A stretch of 64,000 nucleotides of DNA, from the NCBI GenBank assembly GCA_963674745.2, contig CAXXDV010000001.1, positions 320,001 through 384,000 of the forward strand. The letters run 5' to 3'. Shown piece by piece: positions 5,953-20,699 of the stretch (position 1 is the stretch's first letter; each line of letters begins with the position of its first letter). Position numbers and translations under genes: made by a program. Origin of the DNA: Desulfosudaceae bacterium. GTDB lineage: Bacteria > Desulfobacterota > Desulfobacteria > Desulfobacterales > Desulfosudaceae. The notes beneath the pieces are model-generated. The model made no database searches, was not told where the DNA came from, and saw only the letters and a list, made by a program, of their open reading frames with translations.

Positions 5953-7002
5953 TTAATCGATCCGGATAGTTTCTTCAGCACCGTCTACGACTTCGCCCAC
6001 CAGGGCCGCGTCTTCGACACCGGCAGCTTTTAAGGCCCCTACCAGGTCCTCCCCCCCGGACCGGTCGACACTGATCAGCAGGCCGCCCGAAGTCTGGGGA
6101 TCGACCAGCACGTCCTGCAGTGAACGGGAGACAGTACCGGAAAAGATCAGCATGGCATCCCGGAACTCCCGGTTTTTGTGCGCACCGGCCGGAATCAGCC
6201 CCATGTCGGCATACGCCAGGGCTTCCTTGATCACCGGTACATCGGCCGCATAAACCCGGATGCCCATAGCCGAGCCCACGACCATTTCTGCCAGATGGCC
6301 CAAAAACCCGAAGCCGGTGATATCCGTACAGGCGCCGACATTAAACTGCGCCATCACTTCCGCCGCCGTCCGGTTGAGTTCGGCCATCTGCCGGCAAACC
6401 CGGTCAACCAGATCCGCCGGAGCCAGCTCCCCCTTGATGGCGGTATTGACGATACCCGTACCCAGCGCCTTGGTCAGCACCAGACGATCCCCGGCACGCA
6501 GCGCTTTCTTGGTCAGCACCCGGTCAGGATGCACAAACCCGGTAACCGACAGCCCGTATTTCAATTCTTCGTCTTCAACGCTGTGGCCGCCGATCAGCAC
6601 AACCCCGGCTTCGGCCATTTTATCGATGCCGCCCTGCAGGATCATGCGCAGCACGGACATATCCATCTTTTGAGCAGGGAATGCCACCAGGTTCATGGCG
6701 GTTTTGGGAACGCCGCCCATGGCGTAAACATCGCTCAAGGCATTGGCGGCCGCGATCTGTCCGAACCAGTAGGGGTCATCGACGATGGGTGTAAAAAAGT
6801 CCACCGTCTGGATCAGGGCCAGATCATCGGAAATTTTATACACGCCGGCGTCATCGGCACGCTCAAGCCCGACCATGACATTTTCATCAGACGGAAACGT
6901 CATACCGCACAAAGCCCTGTCCAGGTCCCCTGGCGCCAGCTTGGACGCTCACCCGGCCCCGGCCACAGTTGCGGTCAGACGGATATCTTTCGTTTTATCC
7001 AT
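5953..7002 (-). CDS. selD: Selenide, water dikinase SelD, selenocysteine-containing (UGA at 6951-6949, residue 18)
   Basis: ATG at 7002 gives MDKTKDIRLTATVAGAG-U-ASKLAPGDLDRAL, in frame with the 319 aa ORF. QTVDFFTP, ANALSDVYAMGG, DITGFG and DPQTSGGLL motifs present. Confidence 0.95.
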
Positions 7003-12082: not shown

Positions 12083-15000
12083 ATGGATATGTCCCCCATA
12101 TTTCCGGTATCTGCAATCGCCCTGGTTTTTCTGCTCGGTGTGCTTGCCGCCCTGTTGCTGAGTCGCGACAAACTTAAAAAAAGGCTCGAAGAAACCCGGG
12201 CAGCATATCAACATCTTGAGGAAGCCTCGAAAAGCTATCGCCTGCTGGCGGAAAATATCAATGAGGTTATTTATATTATTGATATCGCCACCCTGCAATA
12301 CACGTATGCCAGCCCTTCGGTCCTCCGGACGCACGGTTTTACACCCGAAGAACTGACCGAGCTGACAATAAACCGGTTATTAACACCGCAATCCCTGGAA
12401 AAGGCATTAAAACATATAGCCGAAGAGCTTGAGCGGGACAACCTGCCCGGAGTAGATCCTGCCCGGCATATCACCATCGAGCTCGAGCAATATCGGAAAG
12501 ACGGCTCGGTTATACTGGTCGAAACATCTGCCAAGTTCTTGCGGGATGAAACCGGGCGGCCTGTTTCCATCGCCGGCGTCGTCAGGAACATCGGGGAACG
12601 TAAGCAGGCGGAAAACGCCCTGCGGGAAAGTGAAAAGCTGTATCGCCTGCTGGCCGACAATATCAACGAAATTATCTTTATAATCGACCTTGAAACATTT
12701 CGACATACCTATGCCAGCCCTTCGGTAAAAAACATACTGGGATATACACCGGAAGAGATGCTGGCATTGCCCATTGAAAAGGTGCTGGCGCCGAAATCAC
12801 TGGAGCATACCGCAAATATCCTTGCCGATGCGTTTGTCTGGGAGCCCGCATCCGATGCTGCCCCGGACAAAAATGTTATCCTGGAACTGGAAGTCTATCA
12901 CAAAAACGGTTCGATTGTGTGGGTGGAAACCAGCGCCAAAGCGCTGCGTGACATAACCGGAAAGCCCGTGTCAATACTCGGCGTTACCAGGGATATCTCG
13001 GAACGGAAGAAGTCCGAAGCCGCCCTGCGGGAAAGTGAAGAACGCTATCGCCTGCTGGCAGACAATATCAGCGAAGTCATTTACATCATTGACCTGGATT
13101 CCCTTCGCCATTTTTATATCTCCCCTTCCGTATACCAGGTGCATGGATATACGTCGGAAGAGTACCTGGAGCTCCCGCTAGAAAAAGTTCTGACGCCGCA
13201 CTCTCTTGACCTGGCACTCAAAACGATTGAATCAGAAGTTGCCAGAGGATACGATCCGGAAACCGATAATAGCCGGTTTATTACCCTTGAGCTTGAGGAG
13301 TATCGGAAAGACGGATCAACCCTCTGGATGGAAAATATTGCCCGTGTTTACCATGATGAAAAAGGAAAACCGGTATCCATTATCGGTGTGGCCCGGGATA
13401 TCACCGAACGGAGAAGATCCGAAATCGCCCTTCGCGAAAGCGAAAAATTGTATCGCCTGCTGGCCGACAATATCTCTGAAACAATTTCCATTCTCAACCT
13501 GAAAGACCTGTCTCATCAGTATGTTTCCCCTTCCGTAAAAAAGCTCAAAGGTTTTACGGCGGAAGAAGCCCTGGTGCAACCGATTGACCAGGTATTAACA
13601 CCCCCGTCTCTTCAACTGGCCACACAGACCATCACCGAGGAACTTGCCAGGGATGGGCAGCCCGGCGTAACGCCTGACCGTCATCGCACGCTGAAACTGG
13701 AGCAATACTGCAAAAACGGCACCACTGTCTGGACCGAAGTAGCAGCCTCTTTTTTAAGAGACGAAACCGGAAAACCGGTATCGCTTCTGACAGCGGCCAG
13801 AGACATCTCAGAACGGATAAAAGCGGAAATGAATCTTCGTGAAAGTGAGGAACGCTACCGCATGCTGGCCGACAACATCAGCGAATTGATTTATCTCTTC
13901 GACCCGCAACGGCTGCGCTTTACTTTTGCAACACCTTCCGTCCATTCTATGTTTGGTTATACAATAGAAGAGTTTCTGGAACTTCCATTTGACAAATTAT
14001 TGACCCCGCCATCCTTTGAGACAGCCATTCAGGCCATAAAAGACGAACTGGCCAGGGGCCAGGAGCCTGAAAACGGTAATCTTAAATACATCACCCTTGA
14101 GCTCGAGGGTTATCGAAAGGATGGTTCTACGATCTGGACGGAAACGATTGGCCGGATTTTTTTTGATAAAGACGGCAACCCGTTATATCTTCTTGGCGTC
14201 AGCCGTGATCTTACCCAGCGCAAAGAGACAGAAGAAGCCATGAAACAGGCCCGGGACGCAGCTGAAGCGGCCAATCGGGCCAAAAGTGAATTTCTGGCCA
14301 ACATGAGCCATGAAATCCGCACCCCCATGAACGGTGTGATCGGTATGACCGAACTGCTGCTGGGCAGTCCGCTTTCAACGGAACAGCATGAATACGTGGA
14401 CAGTTTGAGAAGCAGCGCGGAAGCGCTCCTGGTGATCATCAAGGATGTGCTTGATTTTTCCAAAATCGAAGCCGGGATGCTCAACCTTGAAATTATTGAT
14501 TTTGACCTGAATCAACTCTGTAAAGAAGTACATGACAATATTAATATCAAAGCCATACACAAACAAATCACCTACCATACATCCATCGAAAAAAACGTCC
14601 CACTCATTCTCAAGGGAGATCCGGTCAGGCTGCGCCAGGTGCTTTTCAACCTCTGTGAAAACGCAATCAAATTTACACAGGAGGGGTCGGTCAGGGTCAC
14701 GGTTTCCCTGAAGGAAAAAACCGGCACAAGGGCCACTCTTTTATTCGAAGTCACGGATACCGGTATCGGTATTCCTTTGGAGCACCAGGATATTATTTTT
14801 GACTCTTTCTCCCAGGTGGACGCCTCCACCACCAGGCGTTTTGGCGGTACCGGACTGGGACTGGCCATATCAAAACGGCTGGTGACCTTACTGGGCGGAG
14901 AAATCAGTGTTTACAGCCGACCGGGCCAAGGCACGACGTTCAGATTTTCAGCCCCTTTTGACATTTTGGAACAACAACCTGCGCCCCTTACCCCATCGGC

Positions 15001-15403
15001 CGGACAGGATCTGGAAACGGTCGTGAATACCAAACCGGCCAAAATCCTTCTGGTCGAAGACAATGATATCAGCCAGAAAGTCATCACACAGATGCTTGAG
15101 CATTTCGGGCATATGGTGACCATTACCGCAAACGGAGCAGAAGCGGTGAAAATATTCGGCCAACAGGATTTCGACCTGGTACTCATGGACATCCAGATGC
15201 CGGTCATGGACGGCGTTACCGCCACAAAAAAAATTCACGAGCTGCAACAGGGCAAAAGCAGAAAAACGCCGGTTGTTGCCCTCACTGCCAACGCCATGGC
15301 CGGTGACCGGGAACGTTTTCTCAGCCAGGGAATGAACGATTATATTTCCAAACCGGTAACACTGGAAACGCTGGAAGTGGTTATCAGGCGGAATATCAGT
15401 TAA
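12083..15403 (+). CDS. Hybrid sensor histidine kinase (TM, 5 PAS, HisKA, HATPase, REC)
   Basis: Five YR(L/M)LA(D/E)NI-initiated PAS repeats; FLANMSHEIRTP, DTGIGI, GGTGLGL and VLMDIQMP. Confidence 0.93.
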   Translation: MDMSPIFPVSAIALVFLLGVLAALLLSRDKLKKRLEETRAAYQHLEEASKSYRLLAENINEVIYIIDIATLQYTYASPSVLRTHGFTPEELTELTINRLLTPQSLEKALKHIAEELERDNLPGVDPARHITIELEQYRKDGSVILVETSAKFLRDETGRPVSIAGVVRNIGERKQAENALRESEKLYRLLADNINEIIFIIDLETFRHTYASPSVKNILGYTPEEMLALPIEKVLAPKSLEHTANILADAFVWEPASDAAPDKNVILELEVYHKNGSIVWVETSAKALRDITGKPVSILGVTRDISERKKSEAALRESEERYRLLADNISEVIYIIDLDSLRHFYISPSVYQVHGYTSEEYLELPLEKVLTPHSLDLALKTIESEVARGYDPETDNSRFITLELEEYRKDGSTLWMENIARVYHDEKGKPVSIIGVARDITERRRSEIALRESEKLYRLLADNISETISILNLKDLSHQYVSPSVKKLKGFTAEEALVQPIDQVLTPPSLQLATQTITEELARDGQPGVTPDRHRTLKLEQYCKNGTTVWTEVAASFLRDETGKPVSLLTAARDISERIKAEMNLRESEERYRMLADNISELIYLFDPQRLRFTFATPSVHSMFGYTIEEFLELPFDKLLTPPSFETAIQAIKDELARGQEPENGNLKYITLELEGYRKDGSTIWTETIGRIFFDKDGNPLYLLGVSRDLTQRKETEEAMKQARDAAEAANRAKSEFLANMSHEIRTPMNGVIGMTELLLGSPLSTEQHEYVDSLRSSAEALLVIIKDVLDFSKIEAGMLNLEIIDFDLNQLCKEVHDNINIKAIHKQITYHTSIEKNVPLILKGDPVRLRQVLFNLCENAIKFTQEGSVRVTVSLKEKTGTRATLLFEVTDTGIGIPLEHQDIIFDSFSQVDASTTRRFGGTGLGLAISKRLVTLLGGEISVYSRPGQGTTFRFSAPFDILEQQPAPLTPSAGQDLETVVNTKPAKILLVEDNDISQKVITQMLEHFGHMVTITANGAEAVKIFGQQDFDLVLMDIQMPVMDGVTATKKIHELQQGKSRKTPVVALTANAMAGDRERFLSQGMNDYISKPVTLETLEVVIRRNIS

Positions 15404-15521: not shown

Positions 15522-16388
15522 TTACCTTAACCACTTAACCGAGGGGCTTTTGCGGAACGCCGTGTTGGTATGCCTGTAGGCGGGATATCCCAGAACAAGG
15601 CCGACATGAACACACCGGTCCCGGGGAATTTGCAACAGACGTCGAAGCTTGCGGCTGCGTTTTAACATCAGCACCAGAAAGCCGATATAGCAGGTTCCCA
15701 ACTCCCGGGCATGGGCGTAATTGATCATATTGGTAGCGGCGATGTTACAATTGTCCGGGCCAAAGGCCGCGCCTCTGGGCGTCGCGATCAGGATCAGTAC
15801 CGGGGCGTTATGCAGGATAAAATCCCGTCCTTTTTTATTCTCCGCGATATAATAATCCATGGTACCCAAATAACGGTTCAATGTGCGAACCAGGCCGGTG
15901 TTTTGAAAAACCGCCAACAACTTCCGTCCGATGCCTGAATTGGCCCACCTGTTCAACCGTACACCGAAGCCAAAAATGTGCGCGGCGACCTGATCCAACA
16001 CCTGCCGGTCGGTCACCACCGTGTAGACGACATTTTGTAAATTACTGGCCGTGGGCGAAAACCGGGCCAGATCAATCAGTTCTTCAATCACCTCATCCGG
16101 CACCGGATCTTTTTTATAACGACGAATGCTTCGCCGGGAAACAGCGATTTCCCGGTAAACTTCCGGATCAAGCCGCTTTTTATCAATCCGTTGGGTCTGT
16201 AACTCGTCCAGCAGGGAATGTTGCACTGCTCCGGACGGGCATACCGCCAGGCAGTGGCCGCAGGCATTGCACATTTTCGGATTGACCGGCCGTGGCACGC
16301 CATCTATCTCTCTCCACACCCCGGCCACGCATTCCTGAACGCAAAGCATGCACAGGGTGCATTTTTCTTCCCGCCTTTTGATTTCCAT
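15522..16388 (-). CDS. Nitroreductase family protein with N-terminal 2x[4Fe-4S] domain
   Basis: CTLCMLCVQEC and CNACGHCLAVCP; RRSIRRY, SPTASN and LGTCYIG. Confidence 0.9.
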   Translation of the reverse strand: MEIKRREEKCTLCMLCVQECVAGVWREIDGVPRPVNPKMCNACGHCLAVCPSGAVQHSLLDELQTQRIDKKRLDPEVYREIAVSRRSIRRYKKDPVPDEVIEELIDLARFSPTASNLQNVVYTVVTDRQVLDQVAAHIFGFGVRLNRWANSGIGRKLLAVFQNTGLVRTLNRYLGTMDYYIAENKKGRDFILHNAPVLILIATPRGAAFGPDNCNIAATNMINYAHARELGTCYIGFLVLMLKRSRKLRRLLQIPRDRCVHVGLVLGYPAYRHTNTAFRKSPSVKWLR

Positions 16389-17234
16389 TTATGATTTGTT
16401 CCCGCCATTTGAATTCAAATAATTGTCAAACCAGCCTTTTTTATAGATATACCCGGAAATGCGCAAATAGCTTTCAGGAAACAGTCGTTTCATTAACCAG
16501 ATGGCCTTCCCATCGATCTGACAGATGGCATAAAATTTTTTCTTTTCAGCGCAGTTATAGGCGTGACGGGCCACATCTTCGGCCGTCACTTTTGATTTTT
16601 CGAAAAATGAACTGGCCATATTGACCTGACGGGCCTGGGGGGATTTAAACTGATCCATCAGGTTGGTCTTGAAAAATGTCGGGGCAATGACGGTAACACC
16701 GATATTTTTCGGCGCCAGTTCCATGCGCAGGGTCTCGGAAAGCGAAATCACGCCGGCCTTGGGTACGTTATAACAGCCCATCTCGGGAAAAGAAGCAATT
16801 CCGGCCGACGAAGCCATATTCATCAGGTGACCGAAGCCCTGTTTCGCCATAATCGGGATGAAGGTCCGGCACCCGTAGATGACGCTCATCAAATCCACGT
16901 CAATCATCCACCGCCAGAGATCAAGCGGCGTTTCTTCCACGTATCCGGCACTGGCCACACCGGCGTTATTGACCATGATATCCACACCGCCCCATTTATC
17001 CAGATAATAAGCCGCCATGGCATTTATTTTTTCCGGATCGGTGACATCACAGACATACATGTCACCCGCACCGCCGGCATTATTGACCAGACGGACCGTT
17101 TCCCCGGCCCGTTCTTCGTTAATATCCGAAACACCTACCCGCCAGCCTTTTTCGGCGAATACCAGGGCCAGGGCCCGGCCGAATCCGCTGCCCGCGCCGG
17201 TAATGACCACCCGTTTTTGCGGAAACCGCTTCAT
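16389..17234 (-). CDS. Short-chain dehydrogenase/reductase (SDR)
   Basis: TGAGSGFG, NNAG and YNVPK motifs. Confidence 0.9.
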   Translation of the reverse strand: MKRFPQKRVVITGAGSGFGRALALVFAEKGWRVGVSDINEERAGETVRLVNNAGGAGDMYVCDVTDPEKINAMAAYYLDKWGGVDIMVNNAGVASAGYVEETPLDLWRWMIDVDLMSVIYGCRTFIPIMAKQGFGHLMNMASSAGIASFPEMGCYNVPKAGVISLSETLRMELAPKNIGVTVIAPTFFKTNLMDQFKSPQARQVNMASSFFEKSKVTAEDVARHAYNCAEKKKFYAICQIDGKAIWLMKRLFPESYLRISGYIYKKGWFDNYLNSNGGNKS

Positions 17235-17413: not shown

Positions 17414-18103
17414 GTGACCCAAAAAACGCTCGGACTCAGAAGGAATCTGAAAGAACAGCAGCGTCGCGCCCAGATCAAAGAGGCGGCCATCAATCTCTTT
17501 TCTTCAAAAGGCTACCAGCAATCCACCATGGATGACCTGGCCGCGGAAGCCGGGGTCAGCAAATCGCTCATTTACTGGTACTGGGACAGCAAGGCCGCTT
17601 TATTGACGGAGCTGATCGACACCTGCATGAATCAATATATTGACCTGCTGACCGAGGCGGTTGAATCCGACGATCCGTTCATGGACAAATTCCACCGAAC
17701 CCTGTGGCAGTACCTTGACATGTCCCGAAAAAGCGACCGGCTCAACAAGCTGGTTCATTTCTGTTCTCTCCACAATACCTCAAAGAACAAGGATAATTTT
17801 GCCAAACGGGTTAATGATCATTACCGCCACGTCCTGGTTTTGATTGAGAAACTGATCGACCAGGCCGTTGAGGCCCGGTTTTTACCGCAAACGACAGACC
17901 GATCCGCAATTTCCCTGCTCCTGCTCTCCCTGACCGAAGGTCACATCTACATGTCAATCCTGGAAGAACGGCTTCCTCTGGAGCGTATTTTCACCGGCAT
18001 GTTTCTGCTGTTGATGGAAGGCCAGAACGTGTCTCAGGAACAGGCAACCACAAATAATATCGGCGATAATATTGAACAACCAGTACCGAAACAAAAAGAA
18101 TAA
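17414..18103 (+). CDS. TetR/AcrR family transcriptional regulator
   Basis: LFSSKGYQQSTMDDLAAEAGVSKSLIYWYW helix-turn-helix. Confidence 0.9.
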   Translation: MTQKTLGLRRNLKEQQRRAQIKEAAINLFSSKGYQQSTMDDLAAEAGVSKSLIYWYWDSKAALLTELIDTCMNQYIDLLTEAVESDDPFMDKFHRTLWQYLDMSRKSDRLNKLVHFCSLHNTSKNKDNFAKRVNDHYRHVLVLIEKLIDQAVEARFLPQTTDRSAISLLLLSLTEGHIYMSILEERLPLERIFTGMFLLLMEGQNVSQEQATTNNIGDNIEQPVPKQKE

Positions 18104-18127: not shown

Positions 18128-18799
18128 ATGAGTGACCGGCAATTTCAGGCATTATCATCGTTCCGCGAGAAATTTCTGAGTTTTGACATTGACGCCATAA
18201 ATCAGGAAGCGGACAACATGCTGGCCGCAGGTGTCGGTGTCAGGCAGTTTCTTGACACCTGCACGCCGATCATGGCCGAGATCGGTGACAAATTCGAAAA
18301 AGGCGAATATTACCTTCCCCACCTGGTCATGGCCGGCGAAATGTTCAAAACCGCCAGCGCTAAAGTCAAAAGCGCCATGCAGGCCGAGGACAGCGGCAAT
18401 GCCATTGCCGATATTGTACTGGGAACCCCCAAAGGCGATATCCACGACCTGGGCAAGGATATTTTCGCGGTCCTGGCCGAAGCCAGCGGTTTTGCCGTTC
18501 ACAACCTGGGCGTCGACGTCCCGCCGGAAGCCTTTATCGCCCGGGTGGAAGAAACCGGCGCCGGCATTCTGGGCCTGTCTTCCTTGTTGACGACCACATT
18601 TGAAACAATCGAAGAGATTATTTCCCAGCTGGACAAGAAAGGACTGCGCAAACAGACACGTGTCATCCTCGGCGGCGGTGCCACCGAGCAAAGCCTGATC
18701 GAAAAACTGGGGGTTGATTTTCAGACCAGGGATGCCTACGAGGGCATTACCATTCTTAAAAACCTGACCGACGGAGAGACGAAAGGAGCCATGGCATGA
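18128..18799 (+). CDS. Cobalamin-binding corrinoid protein (MtaC/MtbC-like)
   Basis: Cap domain (IGDKFEKGEYYLPHL), DIHDLG (DxHxxG), GLSSL and ILGGG. Confidence 0.92.
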   Translation: MSDRQFQALSSFREKFLSFDIDAINQEADNMLAAGVGVRQFLDTCTPIMAEIGDKFEKGEYYLPHLVMAGEMFKTASAKVKSAMQAEDSGNAIADIVLGTPKGDIHDLGKDIFAVLAEASGFAVHNLGVDVPPEAFIARVEETGAGILGLSSLLTTTFETIEEIISQLDKKGLRKQTRVILGGGATEQSLIEKLGVDFQTRDAYEGITILKNLTDGETKGAMA

Positions 18800-19983
18800 A
18801 AACGCCGAAAATGATTTATGAAAAAGACACCATGACGGCCCAGCAGCGGCTTGACGCCGTGGTTCGCCTGGAAAAGCCGGATCGCGTTCCGCTTTCTTTA
18901 ATGCTGTATTATTTCGCACCCCTGCAGGTCGGGACCAAAATGAGTCAATATATGACCGATCAGGCGACGTATAAAAGCGTCATGAAACAAATCTGGGAGG
19001 ATATCGGCCCCTGGGACATTTACTACAACATCAACCCCTATTCCCGGATGATGTACAATTATGTCATGATGATGCGCGAACTCTGGCCCGGCATTGAGCT
19101 GGAAGAAGACGCCATGGCCAAGATCGATGAAATTCAATACATGGAACCCGAAGATTATGATGAGGCCGTCAAAACCTCTCCGCTGCTGGCGGACATGAGA
19201 TTCCGTCTGCGCATGCTCCCCCGCTTCTGCCAGGAGGCCCAGGGTAAAAGCATGCCGGTCCTGCTTGCCAAGATGGCCAAAGGCCTCATCGGACAGGCCC
19301 TGTTCTGGAGAAGCGATTTTAAATGGTGGCGTGACCAGGGGGCCGTCATCCAGATCGGTTACCAGGCGGAGATGCCGTTTGATACCTTTTCCCAGGCCCG
19401 TAATGTCATCAATTTTTCAGCCGACCTGTTCAAACGCCCTGAAAAAATCGGCCGGGCAGCCGAGCACTTGTCCCGCAATTTTGCGGACTCGGCTATCCTG
19501 GCCTGCAAACTGATGGGCGTGCCGATTGTCCAGTGTTACTGCCACCGCACCTCCAACAGTTTTATCTCTCCTAAGCAGTTTGAGGAACTGGCCTTTCCCA
19601 GCATGGAGATTATCGTTAACCGGATTGTCGATGCCGGGTTGACACCGATTCTGCATTGTGACGGTGACTGGTTGAAAAATCTCAAAACCCTGCGCCGTCT
19701 GCCCGCCAAAAAAATCATCATCCAGCTGGACGGGCTGACCGATATTTTCGCGGCCAAACAGGAAATCGGCGACCATATGTGTATATTCGGCGATGTACCG
19801 GCCGCCAAGCTGGTCACCGGAACGGTTGATGAGGTAGACGAATACTGTCATCGATTGATTGAAGAAGTCGGAAAAGGGGGCGGATTTATTCTGGCCGGTG
19901 GCTGAGAGATCCCGCCAAACGCGAAAGCGGAAACCGTCCGTGCGATGGTTCAGGCAGTACAAAAATATGGGTATTACAATTAA
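18796..19983 (+). CDS. UroD/MT2 (MtaA/CmuA-like) corrinoid methyltransferase, predicted selenoprotein (UGA 19903-19905, residue 370 of 395)
   Basis: PDRVP, FISPKQFEE, LHCDG and CIFGDV motifs. GFILAGG-UGA-EIPPNAKAETVRAM continues in frame to TAA at 19981-83, which overlaps the next ATG. Confidence 0.85.
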
Positions 19984-20699
19984 TGAACAACCCCGAAATC
20001 AACCTATCACTACCCGATCATGCAAAGATCCTGTCCGGGACGATATTACGGCTGGGATATCCCGGCCCGGAGGCCGTTACCGGGAACATTTCCGTCCAGA
20101 TCGAGCAGGGAATCGAGACCTGCCTGGAACTGGCCCGGACAAAAGAAACACATCACACAACGGCTTTTACCGGTCTGGACAAAACCGCCATTCGTGGAGA
20201 CGGCCTTTGCCTGGAAACCGTCAACTGGACGCGGCTGGCCGCCCGCATGTCGGGTATCTGTGAGTTGTGCTGTTTCGCTGTCACCCTGGGCAAGGCGGTT
20301 GATGAACGCATCAAACAACAGGGTAAGACCGCCATGCTGCAAGCGCTGATGCTGGACTCAGCCGCTTCGGTTCTGGCCGACCTCTATGCCGACCAGGTTC
20401 AACAGCAGATCAATCACCATTACCGACAGCAGGGGCTGCAATCAAGCGTCCGTTTCAGCCCGGGATATTGTGACTGGCCCATGAAAGAGGGGCAGGCGAC
20501 ACTGGTCCCCTTTCTGGGCCCGGCATCCATCGGCATCAGCGCTTCGGACACGGGATTGATGACACCCCGCAAATCCATCACCGCCGTGGTTATTGCGGCC
20601 GAACAGATGCCGGCGGTAAGCCCCTGTTTTCTGTGTGTCCGGGAGTGTCCTCACCGGCGCGCACCCTACGAAGGCAAAAAAGACAATCCCAGAAAATAA
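19983..20699 (+). CDS. Stand-alone B12-dependent methionine synthase activation-domain-like protein
   Basis: FAVTLG, RFSPGYCDWP and MTPRKSITAV; C-terminal CFLC-x3-C. Confidence 0.85.
   Translation: MNNPEINLSLPDHAKILSGTILRLGYPGPEAVTGNISVQIEQGIETCLELARTKETHHTTAFTGLDKTAIRGDGLCLETVNWTRLAARMSGICELCCFAVTLGKAVDERIKQQGKTAMLQALMLDSAASVLADLYADQVQQQINHHYRQQGLQSSVRFSPGYCDWPMKEGQATLVPFLGPASIGISASDTGLMTPRKSITAVVIAAEQMPAVSPCFLCVRECPHRRAPYEGKKDNPRK

Follow-up and report, generated by a model that had tools for sequence, protein, structure and literature searches.

Two groups of described enzymes lie closest to the gene treated here. CdmB, the chloromethane:corrinoid methyltransferase I (MT I) of Acetobacterium dehalogenans (PDB 9rui, PMC13222342), is a TIM barrel of the UroD superfamily that carries N-terminal extensions, works with a separately encoded corrinoid protein and ends in ...ENVRAM...GxY; zinc is neither seen in it nor needed by it, and its partners are CdmC and the methyl-corrinoid:tetrahydrofolate methyltransferase CdmA. 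The type 2 methylcobamide:CoM methyltransferases (MT2) MtaA, MtbA and CmuA (PDB 4ay7/4ay8) have the same fold, and MtaA bears the C-terminal motif ...G-C-x-I-x-P...EN-V-x-A. Clusters of MtaA-like proteins (Mlps) are further UroD-superfamily corrinoid systems, which according to the available part of the paper describing them occur mainly in Firmicutes and mostly in genomes with selenocysteine (Sec) machinery, hold several mlp genes plus Ram/RACE activases, and have been linked to methyl-selenium and methyl-sulfur metabolism, the proposal being that a soft zinc site lets them use S- or Se-methyl compounds (Kountz and Balskus preprint, PMC10418091). Here we describe, from a 64,000-nucleotide stretch of a Desulfosudaceae bacterium of the sulfate-reducer type (contig CAXXDV010000001.1, positions 320,001 to 384,000; this whole stretch is hereafter called the window), a UroD-superfamily corrinoid methyltransferase gene at 18796-19983 that is very probably a genuine selenoprotein gene mis-annotated as truncated, with Sec in the place of a normally invariant cysteine.

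Sec ligates molybdenum or tungsten in formate dehydrogenase (Fdh) and nickel in [NiFeSe] hydrogenase. The available part of a 2026 review of the prokaryotic selenoproteome (PMC13188914) lists HgcA among Sec proteins, as a corrinoid protein whose Sec is predicted. As in these three proteins, Sec would stand in the window protein for a metal-contacting Cys of which Cys homologs exist, the metal contact being here a presumed one; Fdh and [NiFeSe] hydrogenase are redox enzymes and the Cys/Sec of HgcA contacts cobalt, whereas the present case would involve a proposed Lewis-acid zinc in non-redox methyl transfer. The Mlp clusters differ in that selenium is their proposed substrate, the Mlps themselves not being reported as Sec-containing in the available text (PMC10418091). 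With CdmB, to which it aligns over residues of about 96-394 plus an N-terminal stretch, the window protein shares the barrel, the N-terminal extensions and the separately encoded corrinoid protein; in contrast, CdmB has neither Cys nor Sec at the aligned position, and the window operon has, in place of a second methyltransferase, a MetH-activation-domain-like gene. The MtaA motif aligns with G-U-E-I-P-P...ET-V-R-A of the window protein, and the folds agree (Foldseek E 2.6e-12, template modelling (TM) score 0.65/0.75); measured against MtaA, MtbA and CmuA, however, the protein scores far below the family cut-offs, matches in its C-terminal half only, has H-C-D for H-x-C and is about 55 residues longer. 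The gene and its recoded site are laid out as follows:

18796..19983, + strand, UroD-superfamily corrinoid methyltransferase, predicted full-length selenoprotein gene, 395 amino acids with U370 on translating TGA as U
19903..19905, + strand, in-frame UGA, predicted Sec codon of residue 370, at a Cys column in homologs and with TGA kept in orthologs
19906..19980, + strand, 25-codon C-terminal tail after Sec, EIPPNAKAETVRAMVQAVQKYGYYN, aligning with the C-termini of Cys forms, MtaA and CdmB

The frame that opens at ATG 18796 runs for 369 codons to ...GGFILAGG, where it meets TGA 19903-19905; beyond this codon the same frame reads EIPPNAKAETVRAMVQAVQKYGYYN up to TAA 19981-19983, whose last A is the A of ATG 19983 (TAATG), the start of an open reading frame (ORF) of 238 codons at 19983-20699. 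The initial annotation, made from the letters alone, had already described the ORF as ending at this UGA in GFILAGG with the frame running on to a TAA that overlaps the next start codon, and all of its coordinates hold. It had further expected such a gene to be routinely annotated as truncated; indeed, one NCBI record names the 369-residue form 'uroporphyrinogen decarboxylase family protein'. Its central proposal, that the UGA encodes Sec at an otherwise invariant Cys, is supported by the pairing of Cys and UGA among homologs, by the kept UGA and tail, by selection on the tail and by the presence of Sec machinery, and on this comparative evidence we hold with high confidence that UGA 19903-05 is decoded as Sec.

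A homolog search of 5.8 billion proteins gave 503 matches at E <= 1e-10, the best 120 of which were aligned. At the column of U370, for which the initial annotation had proposed a tabulation of Cys against UGA, 100 of these best 120 of 503 homologs carry Cys, 19 end exactly one residue before the column, and 1 is a fragment; the 14 closest among them (78-90% identity) are all of the truncated kind, 369-370 amino acids long. Within the same family, an ortholog at 78-87% identity was found in 9 of 12 genomes, and every one of the nine has exactly one in-frame TGA and aligns to residue 394-395, the tail being kept throughout; the other three genomes, of 79-94% completeness, gave no ortholog match. 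Four matches at 57-71% identity without the stop came from three genomes of two other families of the same order (two in G027, one each in G261 and G286). A genome scan for the TGA form of the motif returned 10 matches, made up of 7 from the same family, 2 from metagenome-assembled genomes (MAGs) of Desulfomonilia at 66-67% identity and 1 spurious, and a metagenome scan returned 12, of which 4 were true (two per type) and 8 were spurious short or unrelated frames. Taken together, the genome and metagenome scans yield 15 distinct Sec-type DNA sequences, 12 in the clade of the window and 3 in a Desulfomonilia clade. A lack of Cys at this place in homologs, or a UGA confined to this one assembly with reads supporting TGC or TGT, had been named in advance as findings that would count against Sec, and neither applies: Cys prevails in the column among the 120 homologs aligned, and the TGA-bearing sequences come from two classes.

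Runs X1 and X2, both of one sample, match the window exactly; they are possibly its source and not independent. In the sludge-metagenome run X4, two contigs span 19640-19944 with 33 and 45 differences over 305 bases (roughly 89% and 85% identity), and no difference falls at 19903-05 among those listed, which is a weak hint at most. In 6 of the 10 relatives' sequences listed, this very gene ends on a TGA of its own, which rules out a genome-wide reassignment of UGA.

Selection on the tail was estimated from the 12 window-clade sequences as the ratio of non-synonymous to synonymous change (pN/pS), which is 0.13 in the first 24 tail codons and 0.15 in the 200 codons upstream of the UGA. Synonymous change alone (pS) amounts to 0.27 in codons +1 to +16 after the UGA, 0.53 in the gene body and 0.76 in codons +17 to +24. 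Since the ratio in the tail matches that of the body while pS in the distal tail is high, the pattern indicates that the tail is translated; conservation of the tail, which had been set as a test of the Sec proposal, thus takes the form of purifying selection like that on the body.

The Sec form appears to have arisen more than once. A FastTree phylogeny was computed from the alignment cut before the Cys column, with 116 of 121 rows (5 fragments dropped) and a root on the 21 most distant rows; it contains three pure truncated or Sec clades, each with support 1.0 and nested among Cys forms, and requires a minimum of 3 changes with Cys as the root state. A quick IQ-TREE phylogeny of 103 of the 116 rows, from which 13 outgroup rows were left out for speed, again gives 3 changes, and the approximately unbiased (AU) test rejects a single Sec clade (log-likelihood difference 133.7, p 4.9e-7), the group tested having been named after the first tree was seen. 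The third truncated clade (P0081 and P0087), in which the protein ends at the same residue, is known from truncation alone: its DNA was not among the matches of the two scans for the TGA form, and a comparison of P0087 with 401 genomes of the phylum found nothing above 61% identity. Independent origins are also supported by the hairpins, described below, which are placed differently in the two clades with DNA. Hence the comparison indicates that the change from Cys to Sec arose independently at least twice and probably three times, and such repetition would imply a real catalytic advantage, one possibility being that the metal site becomes softer and more labile and so suited to thioethers, thiols or methyl-selenium compounds as substrates.

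The genome to which the window belongs encodes selA, selB, tRNA-Sec (75 bits) and selD, the last of these within the window:

6061..6981, - strand, selD (selenophosphate synthetase) with one in-frame TGA (TIGR00476, 368.6 bits)

A Sec-type selD had been reported for this stretch and is found there with its own in-frame TGA; lack of selA, selB or selC, which would have told against Sec, does not apply, all three being present. Each of the 13 family genomes has selA, and so do both Desulfomonilia genomes, although one of the two shows it as a fragment at a contig end, so that the suggested confinement of the UGA form to genomes with Sec genes is borne out for selA in all carriers checked. Other genes of the genome with one in-frame TGA each are selD, three of the Fdh-alpha type and four matches of the FlpD/MvhD type. 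The genome is thus rich in selenoproteins, the loci concerned being L060, L061, L063, L064, L068, L069 and L077 in addition to selD of the window.

As for the family of the protein, the Pfam URO-D model matches residues 191-391 with E 1.1e-28 (100.7 bits, cut-off 23.9), which together with a UroD-like TIM-barrel fold places it in the UroD superfamily (PF01208). The NCBIfam models for MtaA, CmuA and MtbA reach 32-69 bits against cut-offs of 235-600; TIGR01463, NF040654 and NF041608, for example, score 49.1 against 235.4, 49.6 against 400 and 31.9 against 600 bits, with the match confined to the C-terminal half. Because the Pfam match is strong and the NCBIfam scores stay below their cut-offs, the protein is on these profile scores a member of the UroD superfamily, yet not of the MtaA/CmuA family, and no NCBIfam selenoprotein model matches it. 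The label MT2/MtaA-type given by the initial annotation therefore has to be withdrawn: by sequence, the nearest protein of solved structure is CdmB, a type-I methyltransferase and the best PDB match by a wide margin (phmmer E 1.1e-25, profile E 1.4e-38), and this relationship, together with the adjacent cognate corrinoid protein, points to the type-I group of CdmB and the O-demethylases. An AlphaFold2 model built with 24 homologs has a mean predicted local distance difference test (pLDDT) of 94.7 and a predicted TM score (pTM) of 0.93, and its best Foldseek matches are UroD entries (E about 1e-12, TM 0.62-0.75) and MtaA 4ay7/4ay8, then MetE. The genome (G000) has three URO-D genes, and only that at 18796-19983 contains the TGA. 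The third of them, at G000:C1:933969-934631 (+) outside the window, lies in an open frame of 390 amino acids without a stop, of which only the C-terminal part matches Pfam; it may be a Cys-containing distant paralog of the selenoprotein.

The residues invariant in the family include H250, R251, H287, C288, D289, C329, C351, C370, E371, P373 and N375. In the model, H250/R251, H287-D289 and U370 lie at or just after the C-terminal ends of the strands E244-249, E283-289 and E364-366, and would therefore sit where TIM-barrel active sites lie. U370 aligns with the Cys of ...APGCGIAP...ENVKALV in MtaA 4ay7 and with that of ...APGCEYPPN... in an MtaA-like paralog beside a Cys-form locus, the H-x-C of which (IHNCG) is lined up by hhalign with H287-C288-D289. 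In terms of the zinc motif His-x-Cys...Cys, the His is H287, the C-terminal Cys position is Sec, and the second position is taken by Asp289 beside the invariant Cys288. The claim that the UGA falls exactly on a zinc-ligand Cys can thus be kept as far as the alignment with the C-terminal GC-motif Cys of MtaA goes; the sphere is not simply His-Cys-Cys, and the ligand role is read from that alignment. According to the available part of PMC10418091, zinc is held by one His and two Cys in the S-methyltransferases of the UroD superfamily, and in O-methyltransferases one or both Cys are swapped for carboxylates or non-coordinating residues. The metal sphere of the window protein could be His/Cys288/Sec or His/Asp289/Sec, and the motif alignments tip the balance somewhat in favour of a metal-bound selenolate. 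Two facts weigh against this reading, namely that the canonical second ligand position (H-x-C) aligns with Asp289 instead of a Cys, and that zinc is absent from CdmB, the closest solved relative, which also lacks a Cys at the position of U370.

The same two facts speak for the most serious alternative, that Sec is real and serves as a redox-active or nucleophilic residue, not as a metal ligand. It could form a selenenylsulfide with C288, C329 or C351, or act as a transient methyl acceptor like the Cys of methylated-DNA-protein-cysteine methyltransferase, a Sec form of which stands in the table of the 2026 review (PMC13188914, available part); the family has several other invariant cysteines, and most known selenoproteins are redox enzymes. 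On the other side, the G-C-E-x-P-P-N motif aligns residue for residue with the MtaA-like paralog, and with MtaA 4ay7, H287 is invariant and aligned with the His of H-x-C, and the zinc sphere of the related S-methyltransferases, in the available text, is His-Cys-Cys (PMC10418091). We regard a role other than metal binding as doubtful on this evidence, if by no means negligible. In the favoured reading of a metal-bound selenolate, Sec would take the place of the Cys that is invariant in the C-terminal G-C-E-[IV]-P motif, and the selenolate, bound to the metal of the active site (which is zinc in related enzymes), would tune the activation of the methyl donor or acceptor. The type-I similarity, the adjacent corrinoid protein, the soft ligand set and a PF02574 neighbour in Desulfomonilia all point to a compound with methyl bound through sulfur, selenium or oxygen as the partner in methyl exchange.

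No report of a Sec-containing UroD-family protein was found in the literature, the BSepDB family table (Table S2) and subscription papers lying outside the search. In the available part of the 2026 review (PMC13188914), uroporphyrinogen, UroD, MtaA and PF01208 are unmentioned and 'corrinoid' is used only for HgcA. The available text of deep-Sep (PMC12013277) and the accessible main text of BSepDB (PMC13326102) contain no mention of uroporphyrinogen, methyltransferase, corrinoid, cobalamin or decarboxylase, and that of the Olavius symbiont paper (PMC1976440) none of uroporphyrinogen, corrinoid or decarboxylase; no such protein is named in the accessible portions of PMC8318568, PMC6778437 and PMC9723677. 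The initial annotation did not know this family as an established selenoprotein class, and the searchable catalogues agree with it as far as they go. A prior description nonetheless has to be weighed, given that lists of bacterial selenoproteins exceed 100 families and grow yearly (PMC13326102, PMC12013277, available parts); as no NCBIfam selenoprotein model matches and the literature searches were without such a report, we consider it unlikely that the finding is already catalogued somewhere. The protein is most probably a selenoprotein not yet catalogued, a new Sec form of a known enzyme kind. That it is the first selenoenzyme among corrinoid-dependent methyltransferases, with a selenolate for a thiolate in the metal sphere of a non-redox enzyme and a repeated origin from Cys ancestors, is a tentative proposal to which we give a little less than an even chance.

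New bacterial selenoprotein families turn up regularly, and what would be unusual here is the combination of a non-redox B12-dependent methyltransferase, Sec at a probable metal site and repeated Cys ancestry. Nearly all known bacterial selenoproteins are redox proteins, so that Sec at the probable metal site of a B12 methyltransferase would extend selenium to Lewis-acid methyl-transfer chemistry. The Cys orthologs, at 65-72% identity, offer a natural Cys/Sec pair for the effect of a selenolate ligand on methyl-transfer rates. Public data carry these genes as truncated proteins of 369-372 amino acids under the name 'uroporphyrinogen decarboxylase family'; metabolic reconstructions from Desulfobacterales and Desulfomonilia MAGs therefore miss the complete enzyme, and selenoproteome counts are too low.

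Candidates for the selenocysteine insertion sequence (SECIS) were sought downstream of the UGA. RNAalifold on the 12 window-clade sequences gives exactly two hairpins:

19920..19929, + strand, small 3-bp hairpin CGC-GAAA-GCG (RNAalifold), the SECIS candidate of the initial annotation
19932..19950, + strand, 7-bp hairpin AACCGUC-CGUGC-GAUGGUU (RNAalifold), its loop starting 33 nt after the UGA

Both conserved hairpins lie in the 48 nt after the UGA, in which synonymous change is halved. The smaller one is present where the initial annotation had placed it, with the loop G 17 nt after the UGA, and is a weak SECIS candidate: its pairs are invariant in the 12 sequences and so uninformative either way, the loop G is C in one of the 12 (L027), and its stem, though at the usual distance, is much shorter than those of the established SECIS elements of the genome. 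These have stems of 6-9 bp and loops that begin from about 12-21 nt after the UGA in the established selenoprotein genes, the FdhA loops reading GGUCU at about 18 nt. In the 7-bp hairpin (loop CGUGC or CGGGC), 98.7% of cells are paired, with one compensatory change from A-U to G-C (L027), five changes from G.U to A-U and an outer pair that is broken in L056. In 10 of 10 window-clade sequences the hairpin has an energy of -6.0 to -8.9 kcal/mol; the three Desulfomonilia sequences give 0 to +4.5 kcal/mol, and the four Cys-form loci evaluated, two others being unmatched by the motif, give -1.6, +3.5, -6.8 and +8.8 kcal/mol. The conserved hairpins are thus found in Sec forms, and three of the four Cys forms lack them. 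N380T/L381V gives rise to the 5' arm of the stem, the Sec clade having ...AETV/I... where Cys forms have ...ENL/V.... The hairpin lies inside the 16-37 nt range of the bSECISearch model. The Desulfomonilia clade has a bipartite stem-loop, with an outer stem right after the UGA and an inner 4-bp stem with a CGUGU loop about 18 nt after it; the minimum free energy (MFE) fold there is a close variant of this structure.

Several of these results weigh against a Sec reading guided by such structures. Covariation in the 7-bp stem is weak, with its single compensatory pair and 84 of 500 shuffles reaching the observed score; MFE z-scores for the 60 nt past the UGA are unremarkable (-2.9 to +0.5); the loop at 33 nt is more distal than those of the established selenoprotein genes of the genome; the Desulfomonilia form has a different hairpin, so that no one SECIS model fits both clades; and Rfam gave no match, either for the whole window at gathering thresholds or, with E values as high as 10 allowed, for a 121-nt segment surrounding the UGA. 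The Rfam result says little, as the window's own Sec-type selD is also unmatched at gathering thresholds. Two other structures were rejected, a 4-bp alternative hairpin (19912-15 with 19927-30), which is broken by a G-to-A change in 3 of 12 sequences, and a closing stem joining both hairpins into a multiloop, which is absent in L029. From the comparison of the two conserved hairpins, that at 19932-50 appears to be the stronger SECIS candidate, and it would be the most likely guide for Sec insertion, possibly together with the hairpin at 19920-29. SelB and tRNA-Sec would then decode UGA 19903-05 as Sec, guided by the mRNA structure in the next 48 nt. Convergent change from Cys to Sec with differently placed hairpins would make this family a clean case for the evolution of SECIS elements inside coding sequence. 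Apart from the clear selB at C1:1156265, the genome has a second full-length SelB-like gene at G000:C3:1795409-1797292 (minus strand, outside the window), which scores 239.9 bits against the TIGR00475 cut-off of 242.25 over positions 1-579; a second SelB-type factor could recognise another class of SECIS, for example the distal hairpin.

Two readings deny that the UGA encodes Sec. Under the first it is a true stop that leaves a truncated 369-residue protein or a decaying pseudogene with an untranslated tail, as standard gene callers and at least one NCBI record have it and as the statistically weak SECIS covariation would allow; we judge this very improbable, given that the tail has a pN/pS like that of the body, that 15 distinct sequences, from two classes, retain both the TGA and the tail, that three independent lineages end exactly at the Cys column, and that truncation would delete the invariant C/E/P/N residues and the last barrel helix (H378-391). 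Readthrough without Sec, by near-cognate insertion of Trp or Cys or by a reassigned code, would also predict selection on the tail and has nothing specific in its favour, and it is scarcely credible where 6 of the 10 relatives' sequences listed use TGA to end this gene, selA is present in all carriers checked, synonymous change is suppressed and hairpins lie just downstream, and the recoded site coincides exactly with a Cys that is otherwise invariant, which is the hallmark of Cys/Sec exchange.

The methyltransferase gene is the third of a four-gene cassette, in which it is accompanied by the following genes:

17414..18103, + strand, TetR-family regulator, first gene of the cassette (Pfam TetR_N E 7.8e-17)
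18128..18799, + strand, cognate corrinoid (B12-binding) protein (Pfam B12-binding E 9.8e-22, B12-binding_2 E 5.8e-11)
19983..20699, + strand, MetH-activation-domain-like protein of 238 amino acids (Pfam Met_synt_B12 E 8.6e-9), TAATG-coupled to the full-length selenoprotein gene

The stop of the corrinoid protein gene (18799) overlaps the start of the methyltransferase gene (18796), and NCBIfam matches of the MtbC/MtgC-like kind to the corrinoid protein fall under their cut-offs. A corrinoid protein gene lies directly upstream of the methyltransferase gene in 8 of 10 loci examined, and a TetR gene has the same position in 5 of 10 (L089, L090, L092, L097 and L100). In the Sec-type loci of the family (L089, L090 and L091) the order is corrinoid protein, methyltransferase and Met_synt_B12-like gene, L089 and L090 having a TetR gene upstream as well; of the Cys-type loci, L092, L093, L095 and L097 likewise have the corrinoid protein gene directly upstream, with TetR also in L092 and L097, and L094 and L096 showed no such corrinoid or TetR neighbour at the threshold used. 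The Cys-form locus L092 holds a 34%-identical homolog of the downstream Met_synt_B12-like gene. The partner of the methyltransferase in methyl exchange would be the corrinoid protein whose gene lies just upstream, and the downstream MetH-activation-domain-like protein probably reactivates the corrinoid. Since the ATG of 19983-20699 overlaps the stop of the full-length selenoprotein gene, its translation may depend on Sec insertion upstream; if so, selenium supply could gate the rest of the system, the overlapping start being that of the gene for corrinoid reactivation.

The window operon contains no second methyltransferase and no RACo/Ram activase, only the Met_synt_B12-like protein, and hence does not make up a three-component system of MT I, corrinoid protein, MT II and activator. 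No PF02574 gene (homocysteine S-methyltransferase, or MetH N-terminal domain) was found in the genome (G000, 99.96% complete), and the cassette is therefore not a fragment of MetH. A stand-alone MetH-activation-like domain is nevertheless encoded beside a corrinoid protein. The protein of 19983-20699 ends in a Cys-rich motif, C-x2-C-x3-C-x-H-R-R, a similar form of which occurs in the 34%-identical homolog of the Cys-form locus L092; this motif may be a metal or Fe-S site for reductive corrinoid reactivation.

The Desulfomonilia Sec-type locus adds a PF02574 protein, a second UroD protein, a second corrinoid protein and a RACo-type activase. In this extended cluster (L100:5393-13238, genome G693, contig C12) the order is TetR, corrinoid protein, Sec methyltransferase and a 270-residue protein, followed by the PF02574 protein, the second UroD protein, the second corrinoid protein and the RACo activase; the cluster has the appearance of a full methyl-transfer pathway with a thiol as the final acceptor. 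The 270-residue protein has weak QueG/reductive-dehalogenase-like Fe-S matches, and its gene was rejected as the counterpart of 19983-20699, the product not being homologous to the Met_synt_B12-like protein. At L092:9685-11572 (genome G027, the Cys-form locus), directly upstream of the cassette, there is a second B12-binding protein, accompanied by an MtaA-like UroD protein of full length (URO-D E 6.3e-56, canonical H-x-C) that could be the missing second methyltransferase of the system.

Upstream of the cassette, the window carries at 12083-15403 (+) a large hybrid sensor kinase, in which five PAS domains are combined with HisKA, HATPase and a receiver domain. Between the kinase and the cassette, the minus strand encodes a nitroreductase (15522-16388) that includes a 4Fe-4S ferredoxin domain, as well as a short-chain dehydrogenase (16389-17234), and the cassettes of relatives also have a dehydrogenase and a nitroreductase nearby.

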